A stretch of DNA of 64,000 nucleotides, taken from NCBI GenBank assembly GCA_964035575.1, contig OZ037845.1, positions 1,674,001-1,738,000 of the forward strand, in the 5' to 3' direction. Made by a program: the position numbers and the translations under genes. Below, in pieces: positions 5,609 to 62,213 of this stretch (position 1 is the first letter of the stretch; every line of letters begins with the position of its first letter). The DNA is from Rhynchopus sp. YZ270_cl-10. Taxonomy: Eukaryota. The notes beneath the pieces are model-generated. The model ran no database searches and was not told where the DNA came from. It saw only the letters and a list, made by a program, of their open reading frames with translations.

Positions 5609-7395
<1,787 letters not shown>

Positions 7396-9538: not shown

Positions 9539-10513
9539 ATTATTTTTACTTCAATCATTAGACGACTCTGTACAAGAACATCAGATTTGTCGATACCAAA
9601 AAAAACCCCGTTGAGGGAGGAAAAAACTCACAAAAAATAGTGCTGTTTTTTGCGATAAAAACCAAGCATTTTTCAGGGCACATCAGGAGAGAGAGAGAGG
9701 TGGCAGATCCAGATTTTTTTTTTGATGCATGCTTTGGCATGCGTTTGAGTTTTCAACCTTCTATTTAAAGATGTGTGGGCACATAAGGTACGCACATCTT
9801 ACAAGTTTTCCTTTTATTTTTGTCATTATCAGATCCCTCTTTAGTCATAAGAGGAGGATTCCCTGGGAGGGAGGGAGGGAGGGGAGGGAAGAACAACACA
9901 GAGAGGCGCGTGACTTTCCTTAGAGTCGTATTTGTCTCTGTTGTGCAAGGTGTGTTGAAAAGAAAGATTCTTTTGCAGGGAAGAATGGTGATACTATCTG
10001 GTATCACTACAAATTATCAAAAAAAAGGGGGTGAAATATAGTGTAAGACTGTCCAAATGACAGCTAAAAAACACTAAACAGAATATCAAAAAAACTTCCC
10101 TCTTTGGTGTACTGACACCACACTAAATCAATCATATGTGCTGTTTTGTTTAATTTACTTCAACGTCGTGCACCAGTGGGTAGGGGGAGGGGCCCGGGGA
10201 GGGGGGGACAGGATTATCCCACAACTTTATATTAAAAGGTGTCGCGGATGTGTGGGGATGTGATGAGGGTGGTGATGTGTTTGTTTAAAGATGTATCGTT
10301 TTTGAACGTCCTTTGTGTGGTTTCTCTTTGAATGTAACGTAGATGAAAATGATAAGGTGACTAAGCACAAGAGGTGAGCTACGATCATCCGAAAATATAA
10401 AACAAGTTTTTTTTGAACATGATCCACTTTTATTTTTGCAATTTTGATTTTTTCATTCTTTTACAATGTAGGTTTCGAAAACTGTCTGGGCCTTGAGCGA
10501 CAGCGGAACACTA

Positions 10514-10604
10514 ACTACAAGTCCACAGAGGGTCATGCACTGATGAAGTCCACCTCTGTTTACAACTAATGTATGCGTTTAGGACTGAAACATGGACTTG
10601 TGGT
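10514..10604 (+). ncRNA. Candidate hammerhead ribozyme with non-circularly permuted (pseudoknotted) topology
   Basis: CTGATGA 10540-10546; stem II AGTCC 10547-10551/GGACT 10582-10586; GAAA 10587-10590; stem III ATGT 10569-10572/ACAT 10590-10593; GUA cleavage triplet 10571-10573; stem I ATGCA 10535-10539/TGCGT 10574-10578. Extra helices 10525-10531/10553-10559 and 10514-10524/10594-10604. Confidence 0.7.
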
Positions 10605-11254
10605 ACAGATGTACCACCCTACAAAAACTTTTGAATATGCATATTTACAAAAAAACAAAAACAAAACAAAAAGGATCCAAAAATACAACAAAAAAGATTG
10701 ATGAATAACCAATGTTCAAAACATTAAGTAATCTAATCAGACTAAGCACAAGAGGCTTAGGTTCATCTCATAAACCATTTTTTTATTTTTTTTTTTGATT
10801 TGACTGAAACAGCGTTCCACAAGGTTCCTGTGTGACGTTGTGTATTGTTATTTTTTTTTTTGTTGATTTTTTTTTTTTTTTGTATAATCTCAACCATTTC
10901 CCCTCTGCAATTCAGAGGGTGAGTTAAGTGTACCGAATATCGAACACATCAATATGGTGGGTTGCTGTCGACTACGGGAAGTTTTTCTTTTTTTTCTTTT
11001 CTTTCGAATAATTCGTGTGGTGGCAACGGTGCCGTGTTGTATCAGCACTGCACTGTTCCTTTTTGGGTTTGAACCCAATACCAATACCGGGATGTAGGAC
11101 TGCATGGTTGGGTATCCACCCCCCCGGTATAGCCGGTCATACCAAGGTACACTGTTCACGAGAGGGCTTTGTATTGCAGGTCAACTTCTTTTCCCTTTTC
11201 CCCTTCCCCCCATTGTATAAACAGGCGTCTTTTGTGTGCACGACAGTTTTTTTT

Positions 11255-11288
11255 AGGTGACTAAGTACGTGAGGCTTAGGTTCATCTT
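11255..11288 (+). repeat. Dispersed GNRA hairpin, family A (AGGTGA-CTAAG(C/T)-A-C[GNRA]G-GCTTAG-GT-TCATCTT)
   Basis: Representative copy with GTGA loop. Related copies near 10354, 10740, 11859, 21046, 21674, 21981, 22247, 25746, 25851, 25910, 27308, 27596, 35549. Confidence 0.85.
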
Positions 11289-12957
11289 ACGTTTTCATTG
11301 TGGAGAGTCATAATTGAGCTTGAGGACCGCCGGCATCTTTCAGACCACAACCCCGCATGTTGTTCATGTGTAAGCTATTTGACATTGCAGTCAGGCCTTT
11401 TGGCAAGTCTGAGACAGTCTCGCTTCACCAAAGGGATGTGTTCTGTGCAAAGAAAACAAGGCGATATTCTCCTTCAAAAGCGTTTTTCAGCACTTTCAAG
11501 CTTGTACTCTCTCAACAGGCGCCACATGTTTTCTTTCCCCTTTTTTTTCGTTTTGGTATTCCGTTTTTTCCGTTTTGTTGGGTCATATTCATAGGGGATA
11601 TGGAGGTGTTTTTTTTGTAACTCAGGCAGCATTCGCTCGTTACCTACCTGTCCAAGATGGGAACTGCTGCCAGGTGTTTTATCACATTCGAACGTTTATT
11701 TTTTTTTTTTTTTGAAGGTGTTATGCGAAACCCTTGCGAAATTCATTCGACACTTAACGTTTTCATTTTTTTCAACTGAAATGCGTTTTAGCACGTTTCA
11801 ATTGTCTAACTTCACTTATTTTGGTGCATTTTTTTAGGGAACACTTCAGAACCCCTTCAAGGTGACTAAGCACACGAGGCTGAGGCTCATCTTACAAACT
11901 ATTCTCTTCATCAAAGGGAACTCTGAAGAAATGAATAAACACATGTGGATGTGTGGGGAACGTTCGTCTTCGCAGTCCAGCCATACCGTCAGGCTATTAC
12001 GCCTGGGCTTGGAAAGGACACAATGGGCACTTTGAACCAGAAAACCGATTTTTTTTTTTTTTCAGAAAGTGGCTGAGCACAGGATGCTTAGACAACTTTC
12101 CTTTGTTTCCTTTTAAACGTCATAAAGGTGCCCTTTATGTGGAGAGATCATCTAGCCAGGGTGCACCGGTTTTATTCCTATTGAGAGAGAAAACCTTTTT
12201 TAGATGTGCACACGAGAGGCACACTTCATCATTCCAAGTTTCCTTTTGTGCGCAATCATCCCTTTTAGATGGGACACCCTTTTCCACCAGTGTCCAAGCA
12301 TGAGGCTGGTTCATCTTATCAACCCCTTTCGGCACAAAAAATGATGTGTTTCCCCTGTACAATTCCTCATTTTCACTTAGCCATCTGTCTTCCCACCATC
12401 CCTACCCACCCCACCCTCCTCGCCTTCCCAGCAAAACAGTGCGGGGGGGTTGATTACGTCGTGTTTGGGAGAGAGATTGTACCTTATTAGGGCATTTTGC
12501 TGTAACACCTATGTTTTCATTGTATTCATAGCTACCAAAAAAAAAGGAAAAAATGTGCACCTGAATGCATAAACAAATAAAAGCTACTTTCCAGAGTTTG
12601 AGGACGCATATCTGTTAAGTGCAATAGCCTTCGGGCGATATTGAGTACAGATCCTGTTATTAGCAGCTGATTGTCGACACAACAACAAATGGGGACCAAA
12701 CAGTCGGTGCTCGGAGTGTCAGTGCCCTGCGTCCCAGAGGCGTTTTGCACTGACTCAACTTCACCTTTTTTTTCATTGGTCTGATTGTGTGCTCACCATC
12801 TAAACGTCAATGAAGTGATTTTGTTTTTGGGATTACTTTTTTTGGGTGTATTTTTACAGTCCTTTCAAACTGATATCATTTTTGTTGGGACTACATTTTT
12901 TTTTTTTTTTGCCAAATCTGTTGATTTAGCGAGTCTTCTTTCGCTTTTTTCCCCCCA

Positions 12958-13636
12958 CACCATGGACTCGTAATGACATTACGCGCGTCATGACGAGGTA
13001 ATTACGAGTGCCTTGACGAGGGCACCCCCTCGTAATTACGAGGGGGTGCCCTCGTCATGACGAGGTAATTACGAGGGCACCCCCTCGTAATTACCACGTC
13101 ACGACGTCGTCATGACGTGGGCACCCACGACAAGGCGATTTTTGACCAATAAAAAAAAATTTTTTTTTTCAAAAATCGGGCGTGGTAGGTCATAAAGTGG
13201 CCCAAAAAATCCAAAGAAAACCTCAGATTGACCAAATGGTGAAAAAAAATGTCAAGTCAAATTTCAGCCAAAATACGGTCATTAGACCCCCACAGATGCT
13301 TAAAAGTGCCAAATTTTGCTTTTAATGGCCTCAAATCGTCGAAATTAGCCCTATATAGGGGCCAAAAAAAAAAATTCGAGAGTCCCTTTCCCTGGGAGGC
13401 AATAGCCAGACAATGACCACGGGAGCACCCCTCGTAATTACGAGGGGTGCCCTCGTAATTACGAGGGCACCCCTCGTCATGACGTCGTAATGCCGTCGTC
13501 GTGACGAGGGAAACCTCACGTCATGACGTCGTCATTACGAGGGGGTGCCCGCGTCGTGACGACGTCATTGCGCGCGTAATTTCCCACGTAATTTCCCTCG
13601 TCCCTCGTCACGTAATGTCATTACGAGTCCATGGTG
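12958..13636. mobile_element. Non-autonomous TIR element with CAC termini (CMC/CACTA-like), 2-bp TSD CA, dense subterminal repeats
   Basis: 26-bp TIR CACCATGGACTCGTAATGACATTACG and its reverse complement at 13611-13636. Many TAATTACGAGGG/CCCTCGTAATTA and TCATGACG subterminal repeats. CA lies on both flanks. Confidence 0.85.
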
Positions 13637-14454
13637 CATCTGAGGTGTCCACTAACAACGTCCTCCTTTTTTTCTTTCGAATGCAGGAAGTTTCCCGCTA
13701 GGTTCATCTTTCAAAGACACTTTTGTGAGCATCTGTGTCCAGGTGGTTTTCATTTTTAAAAATCCACCTTTTACCCGCACCGACAACCAGAATATGATCC
13801 TTCAGGGTCCCTAGGGTAGAGCCTATAGGCTTAATGTCACCCCCTGTTGTGGGGTCCTTCCATCAGAAACGCTTTTTCAGCGCTTTTCAAAACTTTTTTA
13901 TTTCTTTTCCCGCATTACGACCGCCTTTTGTTATAAAAATCAAACGTACCCTGAAGTAATTTCTCTTTTTTTTTTTTTGTCTTTCCAAACAGTTTCTCTT
14001 GAAAAACTTGACACGATGTATTTGTGTCTACGCAAGACCCTTTCATCGTTCCTGTTTTCTCCCTTCCTTGCCTCTTTTATGGTCATGGGGACAAAAACGC
14101 AATAAAAAAACGACGCTGCACACTCAGCACCCTCTCTCTCTCTCTCTCTCTCTCCCATCCAACTCGAACGTTCAAAAGTTAAAAGAAAGCCCTTCCCCCA
14201 CCTCACCCTTTCTTCCGAAGGACACCACTCAATCTGAGTCGTCTTCATTTTCAACTCTCGATTGGCCACCTGCATGCTCGACGGAGCTTATCTAATGTAG
14301 GTTGGGTTTGCTGGCTTTGGATCTTATAAGCGTTTCTCACCCAACCCTACCCCCACCTACAGGACACCCTCTGTGCAGGCGTTTGTGAACGCGCCTACAC
14401 AGGGGTGATTTCACTTTGCCGTTCTGTCCTCCGGCAAGCACACACCACACCACG

Positions 14455-20400: not shown

Positions 20401-20510
20401 ACTCGCGTCGTGGTGCAGAGGTGTCGCCTCCACTCTCGCATGAGAGGGACGACCCTGTCTCGCCTATGGCACGCGGGTCTTCAGGGAAGTTCCGTCTGCA
20501 GGTATGTTGA
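14455..20510 (+). CDS. Giant (~1800 aa) coiled-coil cytoskeletal protein
   Basis: Exons 14455-16167, 16382-16462, 16542-18137, 18184-18252, 18302-20257, 20328-~20510. Continuous E/K/R/Q/L heptads. The 3' end is uncertain: a further intron from 20502 could extend the CDS to 20642. Confidence 0.85.
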
Positions 20511-21045
20511 GTGGGTGAGGTGTAACGTCGGTTGCGTGGCGCAGGAGGAGGGGTAGCAAAGGTGAACGATGTGTTCGTGGACACTCCGTTCATCTCTCTG
20601 TCTGCCCTTTTTGATGAGATGGAGACTGCTTTGCGCATGTAGGGCAACCTCAGTCGCAATTTAGAAGAGTTTTCCGGCGACGCCTTTTGCAATACGCTCT
20701 GTTGGTGACTGAGGTGCGGATCACCAACGTTGTACAAAAAAGCAAAACAGTGGGAAAATGTTCAAAGAAAGAGATAAAACAGTTAAAACAGAAATATATG
20801 TCGCATTTTAGGAACGTAAGGAACACAACACAACTCTTCCCACAGGGCGCTGCCTCTGCAGCTGGCGGAGTATCAAAAGCAGTGGGGCGCTTCAAAGGAA
20901 GCGGTGCAAAAGGGAAAGGTGGCAAGCCGAAGGAGTACCCAACGGCGACCAAGGTTTCGGTATGCATAAAAACCCCCCCTTTATTTTCCAATAGACGAAT
21001 ACGGACAGTGCGCACAAAAGCATTTGTGCCGTACTTCCTTTTTTA

Positions 21046-21072
21046 TTGACTAAGCACGCGAGGCTTAGTCAA
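21046..21072 (+). repeat. Dispersed GNRA hairpin, family A variant with perfect 10-bp stem
   Basis: TTGACTAAGC-A-C[GCGA]G-GCTTAGTCAA. Confidence 0.8.
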
Positions 21073-22598
21073 GAGAATTTGGGGGGTCCATCTCATGTAC
21101 CAAAGGTACACTGTCACAAGAGAGGGCTTTATGTATTTCAAGTCAAACCTTTTTTAAAGCACAACAACTACCATTTTTCTCTCTACAGCTCGTACGCCCC
21201 GTCTCGCCGAAGTAGAAGATATTTTTTGTCAAAAAAATACAGCAAAAATAAAACGTAGAACGATCGGTGTTTAGCGATCGGTTTGGGCTGGTGAAGATAA
21301 CTAAGCGTTGCGAGGACACCTTGCAAAGCCCCCTTCTTTTTTGCTCTTTTGTATTAGATTTTTTATTTTAGTGTAATGTGCATTCATTTTTTTAGAAACC
21401 CCGTGTACAACTGTGCAGCTTTCTTTTTTATCTTTTCCCGCAAACCTTCCAAAATGCAAAAATAGCGTATTGAAGGAATTATGGAAAAAAAAAAGCAAAA
21501 CATTCAATGAATCTCGGAAACTTCCTTGAGCCACACACCCCTCCAAACATTTCGCAAAAAAACCCCCTTTATTATTCCACCTTTTTCGTTTTTTTTATTT
21601 GCTTTTTTTGTATAAACGGCTTTCCTTCCACAAATGTGTTTCCCCCCATCTCCCCCTTTTATTGAGTAAAATTACTAAGCACGAGAGGCTTAGGGTCGAT
21701 CTATAAACTTTTCTTTTCTTGGGTTGTTGTTGTTGTTTTTTATACACTTCCCTAATGCTTTCAAATTTTATTTGAAAGTATATGAATTTGTTTCTTGGCA
21801 CTTTTCTCTCTATTCTCTTCTCTTCTCTTGTCGTCACAGCAATGTCCAAATAGAACTATCGTTGCTTTTTTTGAGTCCCCCCTTATAGATAGGATATCCA
21901 AGCCCCCTGAGAATCCCCCCTAGGCCCAAGTGTTCCACACAAGATATGTGGATTGAGACAACGGGTGTTTTTCCCCCTCTAGGTGACTAAAGCACTATTG
22001 CTAAAAGGATCATCTTTACAAAAAAAAAAAAAATTATTTTTCGACGACGTTTTGCGCAGAGTGTATTTGTCTCTTGCGAAGTCCTTCCCGTCCCTGCCCG
22101 CTTCTTTGATAACAAAGAAGGGATTGGTATATGTTAAACGGTTTGTTCTGTTGTTTTTTTTCTCTTTCTTTTTCGCTCCTTTCTCTTTGCATTCTTTTTG
22201 TTTCGCTAAGAAAAGAATGTCTATGAATTAACCCTTTCTGAGTTTCAAGGTGACTAAGCAGGGGCTTAGGATAATTTTTATTTTACTGTTGAGGGGGGTT
22301 TGATCCTGACGTCAATTATGACACAAAGAGAAAAGAAAAGAAAGCAGCTGCGCACCATACCTTCACACTCCCCGCGCCCCCCCGCAGTTCTTTGCAATTA
22401 ATGTACTCTGCCTGGCAGCCAATTCCAGTCTTTTCATAGCCCATTTCTTCCCCCTCTATGTTTATATGTTTTATTTGTTAAATCGGGGGGGTATATTTGT
22501 TCTCCCAACCCAATCCACACAAAAAAAAAAACTCCCAAAAAAAAAACCAACCATTTGTTCTAGAACTAACAAAAAACCAAAAAAATAGTACATGACCT

Positions 22599-22690
22599 GG
22601 GTCATCTGAAAAGGGGGAGACGGATTTTTTGTTACACAGCGTCTCACAGCGTCTCCCCCCCATATCAGGTAGACCTTGATCAGATGACCC
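22599..22690. repeat. Small fold-back element (nested inverted repeats)
   Basis: Outer arms GGGTCATCTGA/TCAGATGACCC and inner arms GGGGGAGACG/CGTCTCCCCC. Confidence 0.5.
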
Positions 22691-22792
22691 TATCCCAGTT
22701 TTACGTTCTTCCTCCTCTCCACCCCTCCTTCGTGTCTTTCGCCCTTGCTGTACTGTAGCAGAGCAGATTTTGCTTATTATGCATTCCTACCC

Positions 22793-22821
22793 GATGTGTG
22801 CACGAGAGGCACATTCATCTT
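22793..22821 (+). repeat. Dispersed GNRA hairpin, family B ((AA)GATG-TGTGC-A-C[GAGA]G-GCACA-TT-CATCTT)
   Basis: Near-identical copies at 12202, 57217 and 60472. Degenerate copies near 9768, 25953, 28187, 35325, 56190, 61105, 61441. Confidence 0.85.
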
Positions 22822-22984
22822 AAAAGTCTTCTTTTGACACATCCTTCTCTCCCTTCATCGCACCACAAACAACAACAGCCAAAACACACAACACATTTCC
22901 ACAAACTCCCCTTTGTTAACCCCCTCCCTCCATCCCCTGCATTCCTTGACAACCCCACTACCCAAGGGTGCAGGTCACCTTGCA

Positions 22985-24691: not shown

Positions 24692-26654
24692 GAAAAGAAA
24701 GGGTCGTTCTTTAAGGGGGTAATGGGGGGTTAAGAATTTGTGGTAAAAAGAAAAGGGGTTTGGTGTCTATGTATCAAGTGTTTTTCCCCCTCTCGTTTTT
24801 TACACCGTTGTTCTAACTTCGGGGTCTACGTTATTTTATGTGTTCTGTGAATATTGTTTTGGTTTTCTGTTTTTTGTGTTATTTCCATCAGACATACCTT
24901 CAGACAAGCAGCATGTTGTAGAACACGTGTGTTCTGTCTGTGTTTCGTATGTGCTCCAAAGTAAAGTCTTTCCCGAACAAGTTTCTTTTCTTTCTTTTCT
25001 TTTAAGGCTAAAGGGTATAAAGAGGCCACGTGGCTTGCCGAGTGGTTTGTGAACCGCCTCCGTTCTCTTACGGTACGGACCACTCATGTCTCACCCTTTG
25101 AATGAGCTCGACTGAGATGCGTTTTAGCACGTTTCAACCACTCTTTCTTTTCAGTTTTTCTATTGTACCATCTATTCAGTAGAATAGTTGGTACATGAAA
25201 CAAGTTTTTCTTTTCTGATGTTGTCACCGTACAAATGAAGAGACAACACAAGAAACGAAGAAAAAAATATATAGCGGACTTATGGGGTTTTGAGCATTCA
25301 GGCAAAGGGACGCAAGCTCCGGCTGCTACAAGCCACCTCATGTGCATATGACAATTATTCCTCCCCCCTAGGACCCCCTATCCCGCTATCCCGCTATCCC
25401 CCTCTCCCCGAACATATCTTTTTCTGTATTTTTTGTCCGCACAAAAAGCCGTCTTTTTTGAGGCGGTTTTGTTAAACAATACGTTGTCAAAAAAAGTGAG
25501 CTGTATGGCTCACGACCGGGCATAGGGTGAAATAATGGCTTGTTCCAAAATTGGTAGTAACCATTTACGAAAATTTTATTACCCCTAAAAAACCGAAAAA
25601 TAGGGTCAAAAGCAACACCCCCTTCGGCGCTCGCTGGCATTTTTCCCCCTCCCTCGGGTGCTCCCGCACCCCCCTCACCCGAAAAACCTCCAATTTATTT
25701 CGTTGTGGTGCTGAACACAATTCAACCCGTTTCTTGGATACGTTTAAGGTGGTCAAGCATGCAATGATTAGGTTCATCTATCAATTCTCCCTTTTTGTTT
25801 TTGGGCTTTCAAAAAGACCCATACCCCCGCAGTGATGCCCTGCCCCCTTTAAGGTGACTGAGCAGGGTCATCTTAGTAATACATACTTTCTTTTTTAATC
25901 AATCCAATCAAGGTGACTAAGCAGGCTTAGATTCATCTATTATTCCGTTCTAAAGATGTGTGTGTGCATCTGACATCTGACACATTCATCTCACAAAGTT
26001 TCTTCTTTTTAATTGGAGTGTTTTGCACAGGCCGTAGTTGAAAAGGTTTGCATTTATTATCACTTTTCGATTTTTCTTTTTTTGCATTGATTTCCCCCTC
26101 TTTTTGTGCGATCGCCAGTATTTTTTTTTTGGTCAAAAAACAAGCTTCCCTGCAAAGGACGTTAAGAGCATCTGCAGTGCACCTATATTGCTTATGCCTT
26201 AGAAAAAAAAGCATATTGTAGTTCCCAATGAGACCACATGGCCTTTCTCTACCTTATTGCCTTTTTTTTCCCTTTGCAAAAAGGCGGGCTGCCTACACAG
26301 TTTGATCATACATTCGTGTGCGCCCACACAGCAACGTTGCCTTGGGTGTGTGCAGGAGGGTGGGTAGAGATTAATGCTTTAGCGTGCACGGCCTTCCTTC
26401 TGTTTCGCATTGTGTAGTTCACATGCCAGAGGGTTGTATCCCCTGCTATCTGCTTATTGCTTGCAGTTCGTTCCGTCGCAAAGGTCATTACCATTGGCAC
26501 ATTGCGTGGGATTTAGCAAGCCTGATCGCCCACATAAGCTTCATAGGTGCCACCCCGAAGGAAGATGGTGTTTATGTACATGATTTTTGTTAAACATATT
26601 GTGTCATTTTGTAACAAAAATATGATAGACAAGTGCGGTATGGTAAGAAAAAAA

Positions 26655-26710
26655 GGAGAGTGGAGATTGCACAACTGTGGCAACACAACCGAGGCAAACT
26701 GCACTACTCC
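26655..26710 (+). repeat. 56-nt structured repeat capped by a GCAA tetraloop, copy 1
   Basis: Differs from 32948-33003 at only two positions. Helices GGAG/CTCC, AGTG/CACT, TTGC/GCAA, TGTG[GCAA]CACA. Confidence 0.75.
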
Positions 26711-27366
26711 AACAGCTTATCAAAGAAAAAAAAGAAAAACGACCCTTCATACGTAGGTGTTGAAAAACCATTACCAATCTGACCTCATTTCACATAACGA
26801 AAAAAAAGGTTCTTGCCCTTTGGGCACAAAACAAATATTTTTTGTTTTTTTTGCATATCAACTTCCTGACAGGAAATAGAAAGTGACAGAGAAGAGGTGA
26901 GTTCTTACAAGTTTGTCTGCTTGTTTGTTTTTAATCTGCTTCAGAAAAAAACGCAGCAACTTGTAGAGCATAAAACAACCCCTGTTTTCATCCTTTTTAT
27001 TTCCTCCAACTCAGTACTTTTCGGTTCGCTTAGACTGCAAAGTATATGAATCAGTCTGAATGTCAGGCTCAATATTATTTTTTTGTACACAACAATTCAG
27101 CGCAACACCAGCAACGCAATATACGAACTGAAATTGTTACCCCCCCTGCCACCCTACCCCCACCCAACCCTGCATTATCTTTTTCCATGTTTCTGTGTCG
27201 CACTGTGGGCTTCAAAGGGAAGGCATCTCTTGCCCCTTGGCAGTTCCTAGCCTCTCATCTCAAATGACATTCTCTGGGTTGATCATCTTACAGGTTTGCG
27301 TTCTTTCAAGGTGACTCAGTGCAAAGTGTAGTTGAGGCTTAGGTTCATCTTACTGAACAATTCTTT

Positions 27367-27408
27367 AGGTACACTGTCACGAGAGGGCTTTGTATTTGAA
27401 ATCAACTT
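27367..27408 (+). repeat. Dispersed GNRA hairpin, family C (GGTACA-CT-GTC-A-C[GAGA]G-GGC-TT-TGTATT...TCAACTT)
   Basis: Related copies at 11144-11187 and 21103-21150. Same loop as families A and B. Confidence 0.75.
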
Positions 27409-28491
27409 TCTTCTTTTTAAGGCAGTTTTTCTGATACCTGCATCCGCGAGAGGCATTTGCAATTTGCAACATTCTTCTTGTGGGTCTACACGAATCCGAA
27501 TGGACTGGCAAACGTGACACTTCTCAGATCATCATTGTTCCGAAGGGTTCACGCCGTATGGCCAGCACCTACGGGTTTGCAGGGATATTTCTTCCAAGGT
27601 GGCCAAGCAAGAGGCCTAGGTGCATCTTACAAACATTTCTCTTTCTGGAACAACACAACAGTTCGTGTCATGACTCTAAAAGGTCGCAATGGGGAGGAAG
27701 TATCTGCACAGCGTGTAGGGAATGCTGGTGTATTAAAGTTCCCCCCTTTTTTTTTTGGCTGAACCATGACCCTAAGTCCCCGTGAACACCATACCATCAG
27801 TTATCACAAAATTCGGTGCTCTTCACGTTCGCAAATGGAGAGTGTGCTTTTGCAACGAAGCTAAGGTGCAATTTATTCTGGAAAAAGAAGATACAATTAA
27901 AGGACTGAACTTGTTTCCCTTTTTTGTATATTTTTTTCAACCAGCGATCTCGTATTGAGCGCCTCGATACAGATTCCTTTAATACAGCAAACGTGACGCG
28001 GATGGGATTACACTGCCACCTGCAAGCCAAGCTGCCATTACGGGGCTCAAAGAAGCCCATTGCCCTTGCAATCAATTCGGCCCAGAAGAAAGGACAATTT
28101 TGTCACCATTTTACTTTTGTGATGACTTTTTATGTGCAAAAACCCAGTGGATTTTTTAGGTGTTAGTTTAGCTCTTTATCAGGTTTAGATGTGCGTGTAG
28201 GTTCATCTTTCGTTTTTTTTTTTTAGTTTGTGGGGGGTATGTAACTTTGTGTATTAGTGTGTAAAATTTGACCGGCCCTTTGGGTGAAAAAAAAAGAGTG
28301 AGGGGAGTTGGGTCCAGTCATAGGGGGTATAGCATATTTTTTGGAAAATTCTTCAAAAAAACAAGAATTTTTGCTGGGCACAATGAAATTTTCAGAAAAA
28401 TCCCAATTTTCGGCCAAATTTGGAGCAAATTATGGCCCACCCACCCCGATTTTGGGTCAAAAACCGACTTCATTTTTGCACAGGAGTGCCT

Positions 28492-31021: not shown

Positions 31022-31404
31022 GAGTGCCTACGATTTCGTAAACCAGAGGTCCTCTGGATGCATGCATTGATAAACACAACACTGGAAATTGCAAGGAACG
31101 GGTCTGCATGTGCGTGTTCTCTAGCCACTACAGTCACAGGGTATGCACAAAATGACCGTATTGTGGCTGAATTTTGACTTGCGAATTTTTTTCGCGAACA
31201 TCTATTTCTGAGGTTTTCTTTGGATTCTTTGGGCCATTTTATGACCTACCACGCCCGATTTTGGGCGATAAAACAAAATTTTGTCAGGTCAAAAACCGCC
31301 TAGTACTTGTGCACCCCCAGATCTTCAAAACACCCGATTTTTGCGTTTTTTTTGCACTTTTTGGTGCCCAAAAACCCAACTCAGGGGTCGAAATTTTCCC
31401 GAAA

Positions 31405-31845
31405 AAAAAAATTTTTTTTTTTTTTTTGAGATTTTTCGATTTTTTGACAAGGCGCTGGCCCATACAAAATGCACTGGTGGTACAGAAAAATGGCCGGGGA
31501 ATAAACTCTAGATGCTCAAAACAGCTCAATTCTTGCTTTTTTTGACTTTTTGGTCCCAGAAGGGTACATAGGGTGTAGTGAGCAGGCCTCAAAAACACTT
31601 GTGAAAAAAATTTGGGATTTTTTTTTTTTTGAGATTTTTCAATTTTTCGACAAGGCGCTGGCCCGTACAAAATGCACTGGTGGTACAGAAAATGGCTGGG
31701 GAATAAACTCTAGATGCTCAAAACAGCCCAATTCTTGCTTTTTTTGACTTTTTGGTCCCAGAAGGGTACCTAGGGTGTAGTGAGCAGGCCTCAAAAACAC
31801 TTGTGAAAAAAAAAATTTGGGATTTTTTTTTTTGAGATTTTTGAA
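31405..31845. repeat. Tandem duplication, period ~203 bp, ~2.1 copies
   Basis: GAGATTTTT..GACAAGGCGCTGGCCC...GCAGGCCTCAAAAACACTTGTG repeated at 31428 and 31631, with a third start at 31834. Confidence 0.85.
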
Positions 31846-31920
31846 AAATCGGCCGATTTTGCGACCAATTTTGGCTGGGAAATTTCGACGACCAAAGGGT
31901 CCCCCCTGTGGTTTTTTTCA

Positions 31921-32045
31921 AAAAATCGGGTTTTTTTGTGTATAAATAGTACCCGGTCAAAATGCCGGTCAAAATGGGGTGCCGGTCAAATTACATACCC
32001 TATTTTGACCGGGTACTATTTGTACACAAAAATACCCGATTTTTT
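31921..32045. repeat. 43-bp near-perfect inverted repeat in the subterminal region
   Basis: AAAAATCGGGTTTTTTTGTGTATAAATAGTACCCGGTCAAAAT at 31921-31963 versus its reverse complement at ~32002-32045. Confidence 0.8.
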
Positions 32046-32947: not shown

Positions 32948-33003
32948 GGAGAGTGGTGATTGCACAACTGTGGCAACACAACCGAGGCAAACTACACTAC
33001 TCC
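32948..33003 (+). repeat. 56-nt structured repeat capped by a GCAA tetraloop, copy 2
   Basis: Near-identical to 26655-26710. Confidence 0.75.
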
Positions 33004-33485
33004 AGCAATTTATCAAAAATTAAAGTAGTAAATGTCTGTATGGAAGCTGCACAATTCTCAAAACTCCAATTCCCGTAAAAATAACCCAGTTTTTTTTTCA
33101 CAAAAAAAATGAACCAAAAATAAGAATCTATGAAAAAAAACCCCTCCTGCGCTAAGCCCATCTCTGGATACCCTCCCCTCCCGAATTGAGGGGGTAAAAA
33201 AATAGACAAAAAAAATGGAAGATGCGAAAAACGGTGCGCAAACCACAATACAAAAGAAAACCACTCCCTTATCACGGTCTCCTCTCCTACCACCTACTAC
33301 CTACCACTAGCCTACCTATCACCTGACAAAAGCTTTTCTGAGCCATTTCGTTGCTTTTCTTTCACACTTTCACATAACCCACACCACATAACGTATACCC
33401 TCCACAGCCACACACCCCTTTCTCTTCCCCTCTCTTCCCTCCTCCATCACCACCTTGCTGCAGAGCACAGAGCAGAGCACCGCCA

Positions 33486-35058: not shown

Positions 35059-35863
35059 CATAAAGGATAGAACGACAATAAAACAAAGCCAAAAATAAAA
35101 TGAAAACAACACGCCCCGTCGACCCCCTTTGGAAGCAGAGGAGAAAAGGTCGCATTTTGTACACTATTCAGGTTGTGGGGACACGCTTTCCCAACTAATT
35201 TTTTTTTTTTTTTTTTTCACTATGTTTTTTTTTGGGGAGAATTTTGACCTATCACTAGATGCAACGGGAATGGACCCTTTCTTGACCATGTTGTTGACAC
35301 AAATGAAAAAGCCGTTGTTGGCAGTAGGCACATTCATCTTTCAAGGTTTCTTTGACAAACTAAATGATTTGTCTGTACCACAAGAACTACACCCCAGCTA
35401 TTTTTTATAGGTAACTAGGTGACTCTGCAGGCATAGGTTCAAACTACCAACTTTTCTCTTTCCCCCCCTCCCTTGCACTTCTCCCTTTCCTTTCGCCCCG
35501 TTTACACGTGGCGAAGGTGTATAGTCTTACGCTTACTTTCTTTTACATAAGGTGACTAAGCACGAGACTCGTTTGGTTCACTTTCAAACTTCCCTTCTCT
35601 CTTATTCTCACCAACAGAACGGTTTGTGTTTTACAAAAACCAAACCTTTGTAAAAAATACCCAATTTGAAGCAAATCTCATGAGGAAAAAATAAACACTA
35701 CCACAACTACGGGGGGAGACAACGTCTTTATTTCCCCCCCCCCCCCCCCCACAACACACAATGACTCCCCTCTCAAAAAAAATGCAAAAGCCTCTCCACT
35801 CTGTTTCATTATCCCCTACCTCCTCCTCCTCCTTCTTCTCTTCACGACATTACCCGCAGAAGA

Positions 35864-52862: not shown

Positions 52863-53470
52863 AAGAGCGCCAGACACCCCCCTTGATGGTCCCATCCCTA
52901 CACATATAGATAGAATACCCTTGTTCCTTCACCAGGGAGGGTCGTCTGTGCCGTTGTTGATATGTTATTAGATCTGTTATTTTGATTCTTTTTACGTGCC
53001 TACACCCAAGAGGTGTCTGCATGTTATCAAACTTTACTTTGTTTATGTACACCGAAGTTGTCAATAGTGTCAAGTGTCACATGCAACGAAGCCCCTGTTA
53101 AGTCAGGGGTGAGATGACAGGAGTTGTTTGCAATGTATAAAATATGGGGTGTCTTGTGCTCAAGTGCACATGCAAACAAAAAAAAAGCAAACCACAACAA
53201 AACCGATCCAACGATTTGAGTGAAAACCTTACGCACAACCAACAAAACAAAAAGAGGGCAGGCCAGAAACTTCTTATGTCGCTGATCTTCACAATCTTTG
53301 ATGGGGGCGGCCGTTTTTTTCTCTCTCCCTTACAAAGCATTTCTAGCCCTTTTTTCGGATCACAAATACGTGATCCTTGACAATCTGCCACAAGAAAAAC
53401 GAATATCATTTATTTGCTCCACCCCAATGCCCCCCCACCACCCCATACCCCCATACCACCCTACCAAAGT

Positions 53471-55773
53471 ATGAACCTAACAAGGCTACTCACCCGCCCC
53501 GTTAAGAGTGGGTCGCTTCTGCAGTTCAGGAGAAGCTCTGAAATGGGGTTTAATTACCCGAAGGCGACGCGAACGGATTTCGCGGAGGAGCTTCATGGGA
53601 AGACACATGCGGACCCGTACCGATGGATGGAGGACCCCGAGTCCGCAGAGCTGAAGCAGTGGGTGCGTGCGGAGAACGACGTGGCCGATGAGTACATCAA
53701 CAGATGCGATTTCAAGCCCGCCATGAAGGAGAAGATCACCGAACAGCTCGACTACTCCAAGCACAGCACGCCCTTCAAGCAGGGTGACTACTGGTACTAC
53801 TTCTACAACAGCGGTCTCCAGAACCAGTCCGTTCTCTACCAAAAAAAGGACATCTTCAGTAAAACCGAAGAGGCACGTGTCCTGATAGACCCGAATGAGC
53901 TGTCCTCAGAAGGCACTTCCTCCATCGCAGCGCTGTCGTGGTCGGACTCAGGTAAGTACCTCGCCTACAGCATCAGCAAGAAGGGCAGTGATTGGTCCAT
54001 TGGGTACGTCAAGAACTGCGAGACGCTTGAGGACACTGCAGACAAGGTCGAGTGGATCAAGTACAGCGGGCTCTCGTGGACGAAGGATGAGAAGGGTTTC
54101 TTCTACGGGCGCTTCCCCGTGCCCAAGATGGCGGAGGGCAACGCAGACGCCGACCTCGGCAGTGAGGCGGAGAAGTCTGAGGATCAGCGTCTCTGCTACC
54201 ACTTCATCGGCGACAGCCAGGACAAGGACACCGTCATCTACACCGACAAAAGCCAGCCCGACTTCATGTACAGCGCCTCTGTCACAGAGGACGGGAACTA
54301 CGTCGGCATCAGCGTCTCGGACGGCTGCAAGGCTGAGAACAAGCTGTGGTACATCGAAGTCGCCACAACAGACTTCCGCAACTTCGACCAAACAAGAGAC
54401 ATCAAGAAGCTCGTGGACGAGTTTGTGTGGTCCTACAGCATGGTCTGCAACGTCGGGTCACGCTTCTACTTCATAACCACAGAAAATGCGGGCAACAAGA
54501 AGGTCATCTCCATCGACCTCAACAAGCCAGATGAGAAGAAGGTTGAGATCCCCGAAGAGGATTCTGTCTTGGAGTGGTGTGAGCTTGGGTACAAGGGTAC
54601 GTTCTTCGTGGCGTACCTGAAGGATGTGAAGGATGTTGTGTACGTCAGCAACGTGAGCGACCTCTCGCAACGGAAGCAGCTTGACATCGACATGGGGTCG
54701 TGCCATATCTCCTGCAGCGAGCACCACCCCGACGTCTTCTACGCGATGTCGTCGTTCGGCTACCCAAAGAAGATCTTCCACTACAACCAGGACACGCAGT
54801 CACCCAACGACGCGACGCTCTGGCACGAGGACAAGATCAAAGGGTTCGACTCATCCCTCTTCACTGTTGACCAGGTCTTCTTCAACTCCAAGGACGGTAC
54901 CAGAATACCCATGTTTCTTGTACACAAGAAGGACATGAAGCGTGATGGCAACAACGTCACACTCATGTACGGGTACGGGGGGTTCCGTGTGAACGAAAGC
55001 ATTCGGTTCAGTGCGTCGCGTCTTGTGTTCCTGAACAACTTGAACGGTGTGTACGCGCAGGTGAACATCAGAGGTGGCTCTGAGTACGGAGAGAAGTGGT
55101 GGAAGGGCGGCTCCCTGAGGAACAAGATGAACTGCTACGATGACTTCATTGCGGCAGCAGACTGGCTCACCGAGAACAAGGTATGCTTTCCTTAATTTCC
55201 ATCCTTCCCAACCATATTCCCCCTTTTTTTTGCAACAGATTTCGTGCCCCGCAAAGATCGCGATGCACGGTGGATCCAACGGAGGCACCTTGGTAGCGGC
55301 GTGTGCGAATATTGCACCAGAGAAGTTTGGCTGCGGTGTTGCTGCTGTCGGTGTGATGGACATCCTCCGCTTCCACAAGTTCACCATTGGCGCAGCGTGG
55401 CGTTCTGACTTTGGTGATCCAGGTTTGTATTTTTTGTTGCCATGCCCATTCACCACACACGAATACAGATGTGAAGGACGACTTCGACTACATGATCCAG
55501 TACTCGCCGCTCCACAACATCAGCAGCTCGCGTAAGTACCCCGCAATGTTGTGCCAGACAGGTGATCACGACGACCGTGTCGCACCCCTCCACACCTTCA
55601 AGTACATCGCCGAGCTGCAGCACCAGTGTGGTGACCAGGACCGCCCACTCCTGACCAAGGTCGACATCGACGCAGGGCACGGAGGTGGCAAGCCCATCAG
55701 CAAAAGCATTGACGAGATTGTTGACCGTCTTTGCTTCATCGCAAATGCCTGCGACGCGACATGGACCGCTTAG
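53471..55773 (+). CDS. PREP: Prolyl oligopeptidase (S9A)
   Basis: [29 protein letters not shown] (Ser), DHDDRV (Asp), AGHG (His). Exons 53471-55180, 55239-55422, 55469-55773. Second in-frame ATG at 53543. Confidence 0.95.
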
Positions 55774-57343
55774 AACAGTGAAGAAGAAAAAAAACCAACC
55801 CTTCCCCCCCTGCCAGCGTTCCCCATCCATGTTATTTTTTTTTGTTCAACAAAAAAATAACGCAAAATAGTAATGGGGGAAAAACGGCGGCATCTACAAA
55901 ATGGCTGGGGTACTCTTATTAGATTTGTTGGGGGAGAGCACCCTTAGTATGAAGAAAGTATAAAAAAAAAGGTGGCACCTGCCAATCACAGTTTGGAAGA
56001 TGAGTTGGCAGAAAAACACAGAACCTAATCAGAACAAATAAAACGAACACAACGGGGCCTTCGGGGTTGCAGGCAGGAAAGGAACCCACCTTACGGAGCA
56101 AACCAATTGGTATTGCTGCACTTTTTATTTTTTATTTTTATTTTTTGCTTGCGCCGTTTCCAACCTATATTTTCCCTTGAACTTTTGAGAGATGTGTTCA
56201 TGGGCTCGTTCACCTTTCAAGTTTTCTTCCTTATTGCGAAGAAGGTTCTTGCTGCGAGTCTTATTCATCTTTTGGGGTTTTTTGAGTCTGCGCTTGAAAG
56301 CAATAACCTGACTGCAAGCGACAGTTTCGTGTGACGTATCTCCTCAAGGGTGTCTGCACGTCTTCCAAGTATTTTCTTTTGGTTTGTTTTTGTTGTTCGA
56401 TGGGTGTCGCATCCATCAAACAAAGGCCCCCTGAAAGGTACCCCAGGATGGCCCCCCTTTTTTTTCTCGTTTTTGCATTTTTGCCTTCGAAACAAGAACC
56501 CGAACATGACAAAACACCCCGTGTCTAACATTGAAACTTCAGAACTCATTTTGAACGTTACACTATTGTGAAAATAAGCTACACAGCCAAACAAAAAAAA
56601 GCAAAAAAAAATAAAAAACGGTGAAAAAAGAGCATCCCAACGGGGGGTGTCAAACGCTAACATACTACTTTTTTCGAAAGGGGGGAATGGAGGGGGGAAC
56701 CTGCTGACAGTCTAGCCTCTTTCGGGGTGACATTTTGTTCACATAACCTCTTTTTTGACAATGATTTTGACAAGATGATCTGATACTAAAAAAAAAGACT
56801 AAAAAAAAACAAATGGATAGTGCACAGTCAGTACGTGCAATGTTATCTATCGATGCTTCAAAAAGAAGCAAATAAGGTAATAGCGGAGGTTGTGAACATT
56901 GGTTGCAAAAATCTTCCTATTCCCTCTCTCTCTCTCGTACAAAAAAAAATTCATTTTAAAGGGGGAAAACATGAACCTATGAAGACCACATGTTTTCGCC
57001 CCCTCCTAGCAATGTGTTCCATAGGCCTCCTCCCACCCCCACCCCGAACCGGGTAATGATGTGTCTGGGGTATGTTTGCGATCTCATGACATCCCCCTTG
57101 CGGGGGAGGTCGACGTCGTTTGTCTAATTTAAAAATAAAGTGAATGTACCCCTTTTGTCCTTTACAAACCCCTCCCTTCAAAAGTGTATCAGCTGCGCAC
57201 CAGACGTTTTGATGTGGATGTGTGCACGAGAGGCACATTCGTTTTTTTTTTTTCAAGTTTTCTTTTATTTCGGATGAGAGTTTGTTGCCTATGCTCTGAG
57301 GGCGTGTATGACACTTCACCACATCCAGAAAACACTGCATACA

Positions 57344-60020: not shown

Positions 60021-60471
60021 ACGTAAAAGACGACCCCCTTTTTTTTGTTGCGCCGTTCTGTGCAAATAGACATGTAATTGTGGCCTTTGAAAAAAGATTA
60101 CCGATTCCCGCAGTCATGCTGTCAACAGCAGTGCTGGGGAGAGGTAGTATGTCCAGAACTGTGCGCGAGCTAAGAGAGCTTTTTATTCACGCCTCGCAGG
60201 GGCTGTTTCAGCAGCCTTGCGATATTTGTTGTTGTGATGTGGCACGTAGGGTGTATTTGAAAATGGGTGTGTATGTGTTCGTTATCATCTCTTTTGTGTC
60301 CTTTATTTTCCAACCGTTTTTATTATCAGCGGCCAACGGCCGTCACCCCCTTCCCCCCCTTCCCTTGTCACTCTAAATGCACACAAACAAACAAAAGTTA
60401 TCACAAAGGCGGATTGTCGCCATACAATTTATCAATGCATCTTGTACTTCAGGGTGAAGGCGCAGGTATTA

Positions 60472-60502
60472 AAGATGTGTGCACGAGAGGCACATTCATC
60501 TT
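60472..60502 (+). repeat. Dispersed GNRA hairpin, family B, perfect copy
   Basis: AAGATG-TGTGC-A-C[GAGA]G-GCACA-TT-CATCTT. Confidence 0.85.
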
Positions 60503-62213
60503 ATACGTTTTCTTATTTTCGTAGGGTCTTCCAATGACATGCAAAAAAAGTGAAGGGAAACGTGGCAACACAACGACTAACAGGAGCCAATAAGAGCGAT
60601 GGGGGGGGATTTTTTTTTGTACTCGGGCACCTCACCCGATGTACCTTATGACAAAATGAAAGGTTGTTCCCCTTTATTTTATGATCAATTCCAATTTGTT
60701 TGTTGGGAATAGTTTATTACCCTCCTGCTGTCTGTGTTGTTCCCGAGCTTTGACCTTTTTGTTTGTTATCGGAAGTGGTTGCGACTCTGTGGCACCTGTT
60801 GGTTCTTGTTGTCTGAACCTCATGGGCAGCCAGCATATCAGAATCACAGGTGTTAACGTGGGTCCTTTCCTTACATCTAATTTGAAGTCAACAAAGTTGG
60901 GTCTTGATCATATACTGTATGGAAGGCCCTTTTCCCGTATCCCCCCGTCCCCCCCGCCCATAACTCAGGAACTTCCTTCTCTGTTTTAAGAAAGAGCTGT
61001 GTTTCGCGCCGTTTTTTCCTTCTCTTTCTCTGTACATTGAGGGTTTTCCTGTCATGCCCGTGTGAGCGTGTCAGTTCCGCGGGGCACCTTTAAAACGCGT
61101 TTTCAGATGCATGTCTCTGCGAAGCACATTCATCTCACAGCAGAGCACCGTTATCAGGCACATAGTGCAGAGGGAGGACCCCCCCCGTTTTCTCAGACTA
61201 CCCCCCCCGCCCCTCTTTTATTTTTGAAAATGAAACGTCCTTTCAAAATTCATTTTCCACCCCTGCTGTCGTTTTTTATTTTACCTTTTTTTTTTTTGCT
61301 CTGACACAACAGAGCATCCACTCTCTTGTAGTTCATTTTTTTTTATTTTTTGTGCACCTTTTCAAGGGAAAAAGTTTCTTTTTTTTTGAATAAAAACGCT
61401 CTGGCGACTGTGATGACGTTAGTACTCTGTGAATCAGAAGAGATGTGAAAATGTGCATTCATCTCGCAAGATTTCTCACAAAAAAGACTTAGCGAATACA
61501 GCGCAGGGTTGTGTGCAACGTATCCTGGTATGGGGGTGGAGTGCAGCGGAGAAAACGATGAGAGGGGGCAACCTTCTCCCCTGGTTTTACTTTTTTTTCT
61601 TAAAATTGCGGAGTACGTTCTTGGATGTCTCCACGTGACAAACATTTTAGAATGGGCAATCGGCGCACTTTTCCCGACCAAAAAAAGAATTCTCTCTTTA
61701 GCCCTTTTTTGGTGACATTTGAGTACAGAACCCACGGGGTGATTATTGATACAACAAAAAAAAGCAACTGCAATTCATTCGCTTATGCATAGACAAAGAC
61801 AATAAAATAACACCCGAAATAATTTGCCAACTGCCCCCCCCTCCACTCGGGTTAGTGTTTACTACTTACGTTTTCTTCTGATGCTTTGTTGACAAAAAAA
61901 ATACGTGATTGGTACGTCTTCACAATATATGGGTTTTTGAATTGTTATCTCTTGCTCTCTCTCTCACTCCTCATCTGTATTTTTTTTTTGTGGCCTTTTG
62001 TTTGCCCTGTCTTTCCCGCATTTTTGTGTGAACCAAAAAAGAAGCCATTTTTTTTGAATGCCCCCCTCTCTCGTTCACCCCTCCACAACTACCTACAAAG
62101 GGGGGAGCATCGTATCGTGTACTCTCTTTCTCTCCCTCTCTCCCTTTTGGGGATTTACACAAAGCCCCCCTTTTTTTCACTTTTTTGGTTTTTATTTTGC
62201 AGCGAATGTGACG

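Follow-up and report, generated by a model that had tools for sequence, protein, structure and literature searches.

Short interspersed repeats in the one-strand gene arrays of euglenozoan-type genomes are exemplified by the short interspersed degenerate retroposons SIDER1 and SIDER2 of Leishmania. According to Bringaud et al. 2007 (PMC2323293), these elements occur as degenerate copies in hundreds to thousands, lie nearly only in noncoding DNA downstream of genes with a T-rich motif upstream, have no active parent in view, measure 450–790 bp, and are GC-rich with a 79-bp start signature and an A-rich end. Other repeats are built around hairpins. Bacterial REP sequences (the units of BIMEs and REPIN-RAYT systems), which RAYT (HUH) transposases move, are, as commonly described, extragenic imperfect palindromes of about 35 nt that occur in many copies and in clusters, with subfamilies that keep pairing, and that are recognized in a strand-specific manner on single-stranded DNA. 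Helitron-type elements are generally understood to carry a hairpin near one end, to leave no target-site duplication (TSD) and to insert strand-specifically, at T-rich sites in the case of the Helentron type. In stringent-type LINEs, the reverse transcriptase is reported to recognize a 3′ stem-loop (PMC5135761). In the corresponding LINE/SINE pairs, such a conserved hairpin serves as the handle for copying, with a conserved loop and varying stems. Here, we describe a repeat unit of 50–60 nt in the intergenic spacers of a 64-kb window (contig OZ037845.1, positions 1,674,001–1,738,000) from Rhynchopus sp. YZ270_cl-10, which consists of a hairpin, in the best copies with a bulged A and a GNRA loop, and a pyrimidine-rich tail.

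Results

Architecture of the unit

Three hairpin families, A, B, and C, and a variant of A without the apex represent, as judged from their sequences, related subfamilies of a single 50–60-nt unit composed of a hairpin on the + strand and a conserved pyrimidine-rich tail. Family A reads AAGGTGA-CTAAG-C-A-C[GAGA]G-G-CTTAG-GT-TCATCTT, family B AAGATG-TGTG-C-A-C[GAGA]G-G-CACA-TT-CATCTT, and family C AGGTACA-CT-GTC-A-C[GAGA]G-GGC-TT-TGTATTT. All three start with AAG(G/A)T, carry CACGAGAGG at the apex, and share the tail, which begins with about 4 nt, mostly A or C, and continues with about 15 pyrimidine-rich nt (T at 0.4–0.7 per position from +5 to +20), as in TTAC-AAAC-ATTTCTCTT and TTAC-AAG-TTTTCTTTT. 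Directly 5′ of the unit stands Y-AAG or Y-TAG, preceded by a T-enriched stretch. In a self-comparison of the window, the blocks shared around the hairpins did not exceed ~55 nt, indicating that the units are short and independent and not pieces of longer repeats. They often adjoin: four lie within 250 nt at 25745–25994, and an A copy is followed by a C copy at 27307/27365 (13-nt gap) and again at 21042/21102.

Family D (7214 and 25160) is another hairpin with the loop AGUA, and its tail, AACAAG followed by T-rich sequence, is like that of families A to C. The tail motif ACAAGTTTYY was found four times in exact form, always on the + strand; with one mismatch it occurred 28 times versus 25 expected, which is no enrichment. 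A small hairpin at 27440–27465 (TGCA-TC-CGC[GAGA]GGC-ATT-TGCA), 45 nt past the C copy at 27365, has a G in place of the bulged A and stands outside the copy count.

Detection and distribution of copies

Nine A and B hairpins, stripped of their tails, were used to build a covariance model (CM) of 38 positions and 14 pairs, which was run on both strands of the window with filters off. It gave 22 matches at an expectation value (E) below 1 (nine seeds and 13 new copies), and 22 of 22 lay on the + strand, the best minus-strand match having E = 3.9. Sequence profiles that included the tails (nhmmer) recovered 20 A-type copies at E < 0.2, eight B-type copies at E < 0.02, and three C-type copies, all on the + strand, as were the weak additional copies at E < 1. 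Family C was not detected by the A+B model and is therefore tied to A and B by the shared apex, start, tail, and architecture, as judged by eye. A repeat finder independently picked up family A (eight copies, termed D9) and family B (six copies, D14).

In total, about 33 copies of families A, B, and C are listed between positions 9767 and 61476 (Table 1), weak ones included, of which several have E values between 0.3 and 2. They comprise the 22 CM matches, the three C copies, and weaker profile matches. An initial annotation of the window had counted about 30 hairpins, with every orientable copy on the + (gene) strand and none in a coding exon; within the window, this description was confirmed, and copies were present at all positions it had cited (A at 11253, 21042, and 21667; B at 12200, 22790, 57214, and 60471; C at 11143, 21102, and 27365). 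None of the 25 best copies overlapped an open reading frame (ORF; chance 1.6e-7). The distribution was clumped: three long spacers hold eight, six, and six copies, and seven of 13 spacers hold none.

The core CACGAGAGG occurred seven times, all on the + strand, versus 0.44 expected, a number that 0 of 100 shuffles reached. The relaxed core CACGNRAGG gave 14 matches versus 5.14 expected, six of them at unrelated sites within ORFs (5868, 15647, 34817, 36996, 38859, and 40098). A GNRA loop closed by a standard pair was found as GAGA in seven copies, as GTGA at 11253, and as GCGA at 21042; in many others, the loop is ACGA (11858) or AAGA (10734 and 27595), or the apex is lost. The loop variants and the non-GNRA loops of degenerate copies reported initially were thus both recovered.

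Structure, strand, and covariation

The predicted folds are moderately stable (−3 to −18 kcal/mol), with z-scores from +1.1 to −4.1 and z ≤ −3 in three of 20 copies. When the 22 matches were aligned by fitting them to the model, 86.5% of the cells were paired versus 78.0% in shuffles, and pairing fell to 24–49% when the partner was slid by 1–3 columns. Double-sided changes occurred in ten of the 14 pairs and amounted to 22 cells versus 6.9 ± 2.1 in shuffles, with 0 of 500 shuffles reaching 22, on an alignment that leans towards the model to which it was fitted and that holds few events. The main changes separate A from B and fall on two adjacent pairs, where A-U was replaced by G-C in six cases and by U-A in five, so that the signal is mostly the A/B split and represents few independent events. 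Comparison of C with A by eye added two lower-stem double changes, G-C to A-U and A-U to C-G. Within these bounds, changes on both arms agree with the earlier statement that pairing is kept though the stems differ.

The G-U wobbles noted before were also found, with 24 G-U cells versus eight A-C cells on the alignment; without one inherited G-U column the numbers are 13 versus eight, a weak excess. Folding energies averaged −9.0 kcal/mol on the + strand and −7.1 kcal/mol when the reverse complement was folded (Wilcoxon p = 0.02), the difference being greatest in family C with its three G-U pairs (−6.5 versus −0.9). Given the G-U excess and the better folds of the + strand, the structured strand is the + strand.

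Decay of the copies

Many copies in the window have lost an arm, gained insertions, or lost the apex. Compared with the family consensus, 16 A copies had an identity of 0.62 in the apex versus 0.75–0.83 in the stems, and two non-seed B copies had one of 0.28 in the apex; in these values gaps count as differences, and the copies were ascertained by model score. As its least conserved part, the bulged-A GNRA apex belongs to the best copies and is not preserved at each site. In four copies (22246, 25850, 25909, and 35415, two of them neighbours), CAGG or a close variant (CAGGGG) replaces CACGAGAGG. As all four share the shortened apex, their sequences suggest that the apex-less form of A has also multiplied.

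Copies elsewhere in the genome

Contigs from four public DNA runs were compared with positions 20300–28400, and 6,177 records aligned over these 8.1 kb. In run X1, the contigs of the locus itself had a depth of about 95–109, and the hairpin-bearing bins reached summed word depths (a measure that, like summed contig depth, is not copy number) of 46,261 (A 21667), 19,223 (B 22790), and 124,488 (C 27365 and A 27595). On the same scale, 27,665 was obtained at position 21698 in the A copy and 77,357 at 27367 in the C copy, as compared with about 100 for single-copy contigs. Run X6 had depth only in repeat-bearing bins (18 of 30) and none on single-copy parts, as would fit low coverage or another organism, and no inference was drawn from it.

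The locus contigs of the runs end at the B and C cores; run contigs break at the B copy at 22790, which is 93% identical to 60474–60514. The X1 records that carried the unit in other flanks numbered at least 58 for A, 73 for B, and 66 for C. Neighbours differ as well: at other loci, B is followed after 13 nt by C, where the window has A in the place of B. The other flanks and varying neighbours identify the units as a genome-wide interspersed repeat. Deviant letters of the window (21118, 21123, 21131, and 21698) are canonical in many copies elsewhere; for the C copy at 21102, other contigs have G at 21118 and lack 21123 and 21131. In the flank consensus of the other copies, about 18 T directly precede AAGGTG, T runs precede ATAGATG and family C, and T runs also follow B and C, at an agreement of 0.41–0.55, which marks a majority and not a rule. 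In the window, T runs of at least 12 nt number 13 on the + strand versus one A run.

Comparison with described elements

By the defining features tested for each, the repeat falls outside SIDERs, MITEs, SINEs, and the sarcin-ricin loop. It resembles SIDERs in location and abundance (none of the 25 copies lies in an ORF, and the gene strand carries all of them, with a location in untranslated regions (UTRs) being predicted only), and to this extent the analogy drawn initially holds. A T-rich motif upstream and the lack of an active parent in view are further shared traits. In size, ends, and composition it does not: with shared blocks of at most ~55 nt, the hairpin units are shorter than even the 79-bp signature of SIDERs, and their tails are rich in T and C in place of an A-rich 3′ end.

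No TSDs mark the hairpins as ends of simple DNA MITEs, since flank matches in 25 copies were near the control level. There was neither a TSD of fixed length nor insertion in either orientation, with 22 of 22 matches in the window on the + strand; the hairpin arms could be read as terminal inverted repeats, but the conserved tail lies outside them. As compared with SINEs, both TSDs and an A tail on the + strand of the hairpin are missing. On the minus strand, the T run upstream of other copies could represent an A tail, but the unit folds less well there.

The many extragenic imperfect palindromes of about 35 nt are a REP-type feature, as are their clustering and the subfamilies that keep pairing, and strand-specific recognition on single-stranded DNA would apply to the units, too. 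REPs are prokaryotic and paired in both orientations, as commonly described, whereas the units have one orientation and a tail; a RAYT (HUH Y1) transposase was not found among the 21 window ORFs scanned against Pfam. The hairpin of stringent LINEs and SINEs is understood to end elements of hundreds to thousands of nt and to be followed by A tails or short repeats, whereas neither a longer element nor an A tail on the + strand was seen for the units. Helitrons, which are generally much longer, differ in their 5′-TC and CTRR-3′ ends, which are not readable in the units, and no Rep/helicase gene was present in the window.

The core of the sarcin-ricin loop, which we take to be AGUACGAGAGGA, shares the 8 nt ACGAGAGG with the hairpin apex, including a GAGA tetraloop and its C-G closing pair, and the copy at 11253 reads AGTACGTGAGGC. 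The best window matches to this 12-mer had two mismatches, and their number (seven versus 2.96 expected, reached by five of 100 shuffles) was barely above chance. In the units, ordinary Watson-Crick stems flank the apex, without the bulged-G motif of the sarcin-ricin loop.

The whole window gave no Rfam match at gathering thresholds. With E values up to 10, the sole hit in positions 9700–12400 and 27290–27660 was a spurious one to CrcZ, located in an A/T run, and no rRNA model was matched. No description of such hairpins in diplonemids was found in the open-access library searched or in passages of two diplonemid genome papers, and the supplementary spreadsheets for Diplonema papillatum contained no relevant term; the main supplement on repeats and UTRs of this species may describe similar repeats. 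The statement that no described family matches the repeat is therefore upheld for Rfam and the open-access library searched. Four metagenome loci matching GCACGAGAGGC-N4-6-TCATCTTA were rejected as chance matches and not relatives: three of the four align as a protein-coding stretch with third-position changes, none matched Rfam, and they scored 15.6–25.3 bits with the model, without paired lower stems.

Genes, introns, and other repeats of the window

The + strand carries all large ORFs of the window bar one, and ORFs cover 46.5% of its length. Pfam recognized genes for a TIP49 ATPase, a prolyl oligopeptidase, a DDAH/arginine deiminase-like protein, and a kinesin, and gave a weak paraflagellar-rod match; a protein search with the latter ORF returned only itself. 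The genes are interrupted by very short GT-AG introns, among them three of ~45–62 nt with a GTATG start in the kinesin gene (Table 1). The prolyl oligopeptidase is encoded by exons 53543–55192, 55239–55421, and 55468–55767 (gene end by tblastn), and its closest relatives in a protein search were transcriptome proteins (identity ≤63%). Protein-database gene calls end at the first intron, so that the peptidase is recorded with 550 amino acids versus ~700 in relatives. In at least one intron, kinesin intron 1, the stretch before the acceptor is A-rich and not pyrimidine-rich. The setting matches a Diplonema species for which Thakur et al. 2025 (PMC12621601) report one-strand gene arrays, GTATG donors, introns of roughly 41 nt, and an A-rich tract before the acceptor, and D. 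papillatum, with unidirectional gene clusters, long spacers, and long 3′ UTRs according to PMC10161547. On these grounds, the organism is taken to be probably diplonemid-like. No tRNA gene was found in the window, and a spliced-leader motif had no match there with up to three mismatches.

Table 1 Coordinates of hairpin copies and short introns in the window. All hairpins lie on the + strand; E, expectation value; CM, covariance model; MFE, minimum free energy; seed, used to build the model or profile
Feature	Positions	Evidence
B, variant apex, uninterrupted 8-bp lower stem	9767..9802	CM 14.3 bits, E 0.31; nhmmer B seed; MFE −14.0, z −4.1
A, degenerate 3′ arm	10353..10390	CM 14.1 bits, E 0.34; nhmmer A E 8.8e-4
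A, loop AAGA, 5′ lower arm lost	10734..10771	CM 46.9 bits (seed)
C	11143..11175	nhmmer C E 1.5e-16 (seed); core CACGAGAGG
A, complete, loop GTGA	11253..11290	CM 51.1 bits (seed); + fold −9.7 vs reverse complement −3.7
A, loop ACGA, full tail ACAAACTATTCTCTT	11858..11895	CM 48.7 bits (seed)
A, degenerate	12066..12111	nhmmer A E 0.0018 only
B	12200..12234	CM 34.2 bits (seed); core CACGAGAGG
A, degenerate	12288..12319	CM 14.1 bits, E 0.35; nhmmer A E 4.6e-4
A, 3′ half only (TAGGTTCATCTT + tail)	13699..13727	nhmmer A E 0.064
B-like, weak	14017..14059	nhmmer B E 0.45; repeat family D14
A, loop GCGA, continuous 10-bp stem, without TCATCTT arm, then C copy	21042..21077	CM 24.2 bits, E 5e-4; MFE −18.0, z −4.0
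C, two small insertions vs copies elsewhere in genome	21102..21138	nhmmer C E 3.3e-13
A, loop GAGA, lower stem lost	21667..21704	CM 44.3 bits (seed)
A-like, weak, apex replaced	21979..22018	CM 14.5 bits, E 0.26
A, apex-less subfamily (CTAAG-CAGGGG-CTTAG)	22246..22280	CM 19.5 bits, E 0.011
B, complete, ATG at 22985 195 nt downstream	22790..22823	CM 40.0 bits (seed)
A, degenerate, first in array of four	25745..25782	nhmmer A seed E 3.2e-11; CM only 9.8 bits, E 5.6
A, apex-less	25850..25876	CM 21.5 bits, E 0.003
A, apex-less (CTAAG-CAGG-CTTAG)	25909..25941	CM 26.9 bits, E 8.9e-5
B, enlarged apex, abuts A copy before it	25952..25994	CM 18.2 bits, E 0.025; nhmmer B E 0.002
A, apex insertion, 13-nt tail then C copy	27307..27353	CM 27.0 bits, E 8.3e-5
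C, complete	27365..27396	nhmmer C E 1.2e-15; + fold −6.5 vs reverse complement −0.9
A, loop AAGA, full tail	27595..27630	CM 40.8 bits (seed)
Hybrid, weak: B-like 5′ arm, A-like 3′ arm, then T12	28185..28211	CM 11.4 bits, E 1.9
B, degenerate 5′ arm	35306..35355	nhmmer B seed E 6.6e-10
A, apex-less	35415..35447	CM 13.1 bits, E 0.64
A, degenerate 3′ arm	35548..35586	CM 13.5 bits, E 0.49; nhmmer A E 4.9e-5
A/B-like hairpin, doubtful, just past ORF end 52971	52992..53027	CM 14.0 bits, E 0.37
B, degenerate, 420 nt downstream of prolyl oligopeptidase stop (55767)	56188..56228	nhmmer B E 0.017
B, T12 in place of 3′ lower arm	57214..57247	CM 35.9 bits (seed)
B, complete	60471..60504	CM 45.3 bits (seed); MFE −11.8, z −3.1
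B-like, weak, apex lost	61441..61476	nhmmer B E 1.5
Family D: different hairpin, loop AGUA, similar tail	7214..7268	87% identity to 25160-25213
Family D: hairpin + ATGAAACAAGTTTTTCTTTT tail	25160..25213	MFE −16.4; bin 25178-25448 summed depth 47,642 (X1)
Short introns, GTATG donors, about 45–62 nt	62654-62709, 62821-62881, 63059-63102, 55193-55238, 55422-55467	

The sole large ORF antisense to the gene array belongs to an apparently intact hAT-like DNA transposon at 28492–31021 (ORF 29008–30795, minus strand, 595 amino acids, weak match to the hAT-type DUF659). Its terminal inverted repeats are TAGGCCTCCCCAA and TTGGGGAGGCCTA, a perfect 8-bp duplication (GAGTGCCT) stands on both sides, and a subterminal repeat of 9–10 nt, AAAAGAC(A/G)T, is arrayed at both ends. 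A partial inverted copy of the flank of this element lies at 13130–13283 (80% identity to 31151–31304). A link between the hairpins and the transposon was rejected, as its inverted repeats are unrelated.

A pair of short repeats at 26648–26731 and 32941–33024 (90% identity) is extremely abundant, with a summed word depth of about 1.3 million at 26672 versus about 100 for single-copy contigs. It has a hairpin-like look and is flanked by A runs on the + strand. With respect to A/T runs, it is oriented the other way round from the hairpin families. Another high-copy repeat, at 25016–25150, is directly followed by the family D hairpin; its start resembles a tRNA D-arm/A-box (GCCGAGTGGTT), and it may be a tRNA-derived SINE, although ARAGORN calls no tRNA there. 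Positions 12958–13636 contain dense nested palindromes of ACGAGGG(C/T)ACCCCCTCGTAATTACGAGGGGGTGCCCTCGT-type units in two blocks that are mutually inverted copies, at 31319–31845 a sequence recurs in tandem about every 202 nt (98% between two units), and nearly perfect spacer palindromes of about 127–130 nt lie at 8216–8343 and 31920–32045.

Discussion

The reading that we favour, at about even confidence, is that the repeat is a nonautonomous interspersed element that targets T tracts of the sense strand and uses the hairpin as a handle for copying. Most of its copies are probably decaying relics and not working RNA signals. The initial annotation had offered two explanations; that of a recognition hairpin of a small repeat or retroposon is the one preferred here, and that of a protein-bound cis element at each site fares less well, on the basis of the repetition, the decay, the apex as the least conserved part, and the apex-less form.

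The hairpin with the C-A-C[GAGA]G-G apex, as present in the best copies, would be the predicted handle for the copying machinery. In an RNA route, the U-rich tail would pair with a nicked A tract, where a reverse transcriptase would start copying, in a mirror version of the A-tail priming used by LINE/SINE pairs. In a DNA route, a HUH-type enzyme would act on single-stranded DNA, as for bacterial REPs or Helitron-like elements; the present data fit either route. By its presumed target preference, the element would enter T tracts in a fixed polarity, and because long T runs are found nearly only on the sense strand, such entry would yield sense orientation without selection on host mRNA. T-tract targeting would also explain why T runs flank young copies, why copies cluster in long T-rich spacers and have varying neighbours, and why they decay. 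Single copies may be co-opted as RNA signals, which is not needed to account for the data.

Several points weigh against an element of this kind. TSDs were not found: the longest flank match averaged 4.56 nt versus 3.77 nt at 2,000 control sites, and matches of at least 7 nt occurred in two of 25 copies versus 10.8% of controls. Neither a reverse transcriptase nor a HUH gene was present among the 21 window ORFs scanned against Pfam, no partner element with the same hairpin was found in the window, and no empty site was seen, so that mobility is inferred only. Window copies are mostly without long T runs immediately adjoining, and the T-rich flanks elsewhere may merely mirror the T-rich spacers (30% T in the window). 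Local duplication or gene conversion could spread units, as in the array of four copies within 250 nt. The bounds stated above for the summed depths, the model-fitted covariation, and the G-U excess count on the same side. Finally, sense-only orientation and a GNRA apex conserved in the best copies are equally expected of a selected RNA signal.

Such a host signal is the strongest alternative, with a clearly smaller but serious chance of being correct. In long 3′ untranslated or inter-cistronic RNA, a protein would bind the sense hairpin with its bulged A, GNRA loop, and U-rich tract, and the hairpin would thus govern how the RNA is processed, how stable it is, or how it is translated. Spread in the manner of a repeat would come second in this reading, which has been proposed for Leishmania SIDER2 and is compatible with a later take-over of some copies. 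RNA-level selection in host mRNA may be considered as a candidate interpretation in view of copies that are all sense and outside ORFs, of the better structure on the RNA-sense strand, and of an apex, CAC-GAGA-GG, that does not vary among three families although their stems do, with compensating changes. The 3′ UTRs of D. papillatum are described as unusually long (median about 800 bp) and proposed as platforms for regulatory proteins (PMC10161547). For Leishmania, nearly all LmSIDER elements are reported to lie in 3′ UTRs, and LmSIDER2 is reported to act on mRNA (PMC2323293). A selected signal does not fit well with an apex that is the least conserved part in place, with the many broken or apex-less copies, or with pile-ups within a few hundred nt while seven of 13 spacers are empty. 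Moreover, the distance to stop and start codons is not fixed, stability is modest (most z-scores between −2 and +1), no Rfam family matches, and the presence of the hairpin in mature mRNA is only predicted.

There is a slim chance that the copies are antisense 3′ ends of poly(A) retroposons. The T run before AAGGTG would be a reverse-complemented A tail, the short size would result from 5′ truncation, and the apparent sense orientation would be an antisense bias, which is common for retroposons in transcribed DNA. This would account for the ~18 T placed directly against AAGGTG in the flank consensus of other copies and for a sharp left boundary with some copies stopping early on the right (10353, 21042, and 22246); a reverse transcriptase that recognizes a 3′ stem-loop is reported for stringent-type LINEs (PMC5135761). 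On the minus strand, however, G-U pairs become A-C mismatches and the folds are weaker (−0.9 versus −6.5 in C and −3.7 versus −9.7 in the A copy at 11253). T runs occur downstream of the element, too, TSDs are missing, and copies consisting of the right half only (13699, 27270, and 35306) indicate that truncation was not one-sided.

Tiny introns, or introners and base-paired nonconventional introns, are a very unlikely explanation. They would begin with AAG|GT, have paired ends, and close with a pyrimidine tract and AG; families A and C do start with AAG|GT, the outer stem joins the ends, and AG follows within 20–60 nt after pyrimidine-rich tails, in a window whose real introns measure 45–62 nt. 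Base-paired nonconventional introns are reported from hemistasiid diplonemids (PMC12621601). Against this, family B starts with AAGAT and lacks the GT, real 5′ splice sites read GTATG and not GTGAC or GTACA, none of five introns examined (three kinesin, two peptidase) contained the hairpin, and 0 of 25 copies lay in ORFs, where spliced-out elements should be tolerated. Least probable of all, decayed and scattered pieces of large-subunit rRNA genes around the sarcin-ricin loop would have a parallel in the about 3,600 28S rRNA gene pieces in the D. papillatum genome (PMC10161547) but are disfavoured by the near-chance 12-mer count, the plain stems, and the missing rRNA matches described above.

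Genes of kinetoplastids and diplonemids lie in long one-strand arrays, and their control is almost wholly post-transcriptional. If the repeat is a host signal, a high-copy, strictly sense, structured unit in the very long untranslated regions of diplonemids would be a candidate set of protein-binding sites. If a T-tract-targeting element is the correct reading, target choice and not selection on mRNA would produce a strand bias that looks functional. A combination of the two is a speculative idea, to which we attach little confidence: a mini-element would copy itself into the polypyrimidine tracts of mRNA processing, always in sense orientation, and would seed the transcriptome of a diplonemid-like protist with hundreds of identical bulged-A GNRA hairpins, which would serve a host protein as a code read after transcription. 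As part of the same joint reading, and no less doubtful, a mini-element of 50–60 nt, made of an RNA-strand hairpin and a U-rich tail, would be a new kind in eukaryotes. If mobile, so small an element without duplications at its ends would point to an insertion mechanism as yet undescribed in eukaryotes. Either answer bears on the annotation of repeats and on the use of strand bias and covariation as evidence of function.

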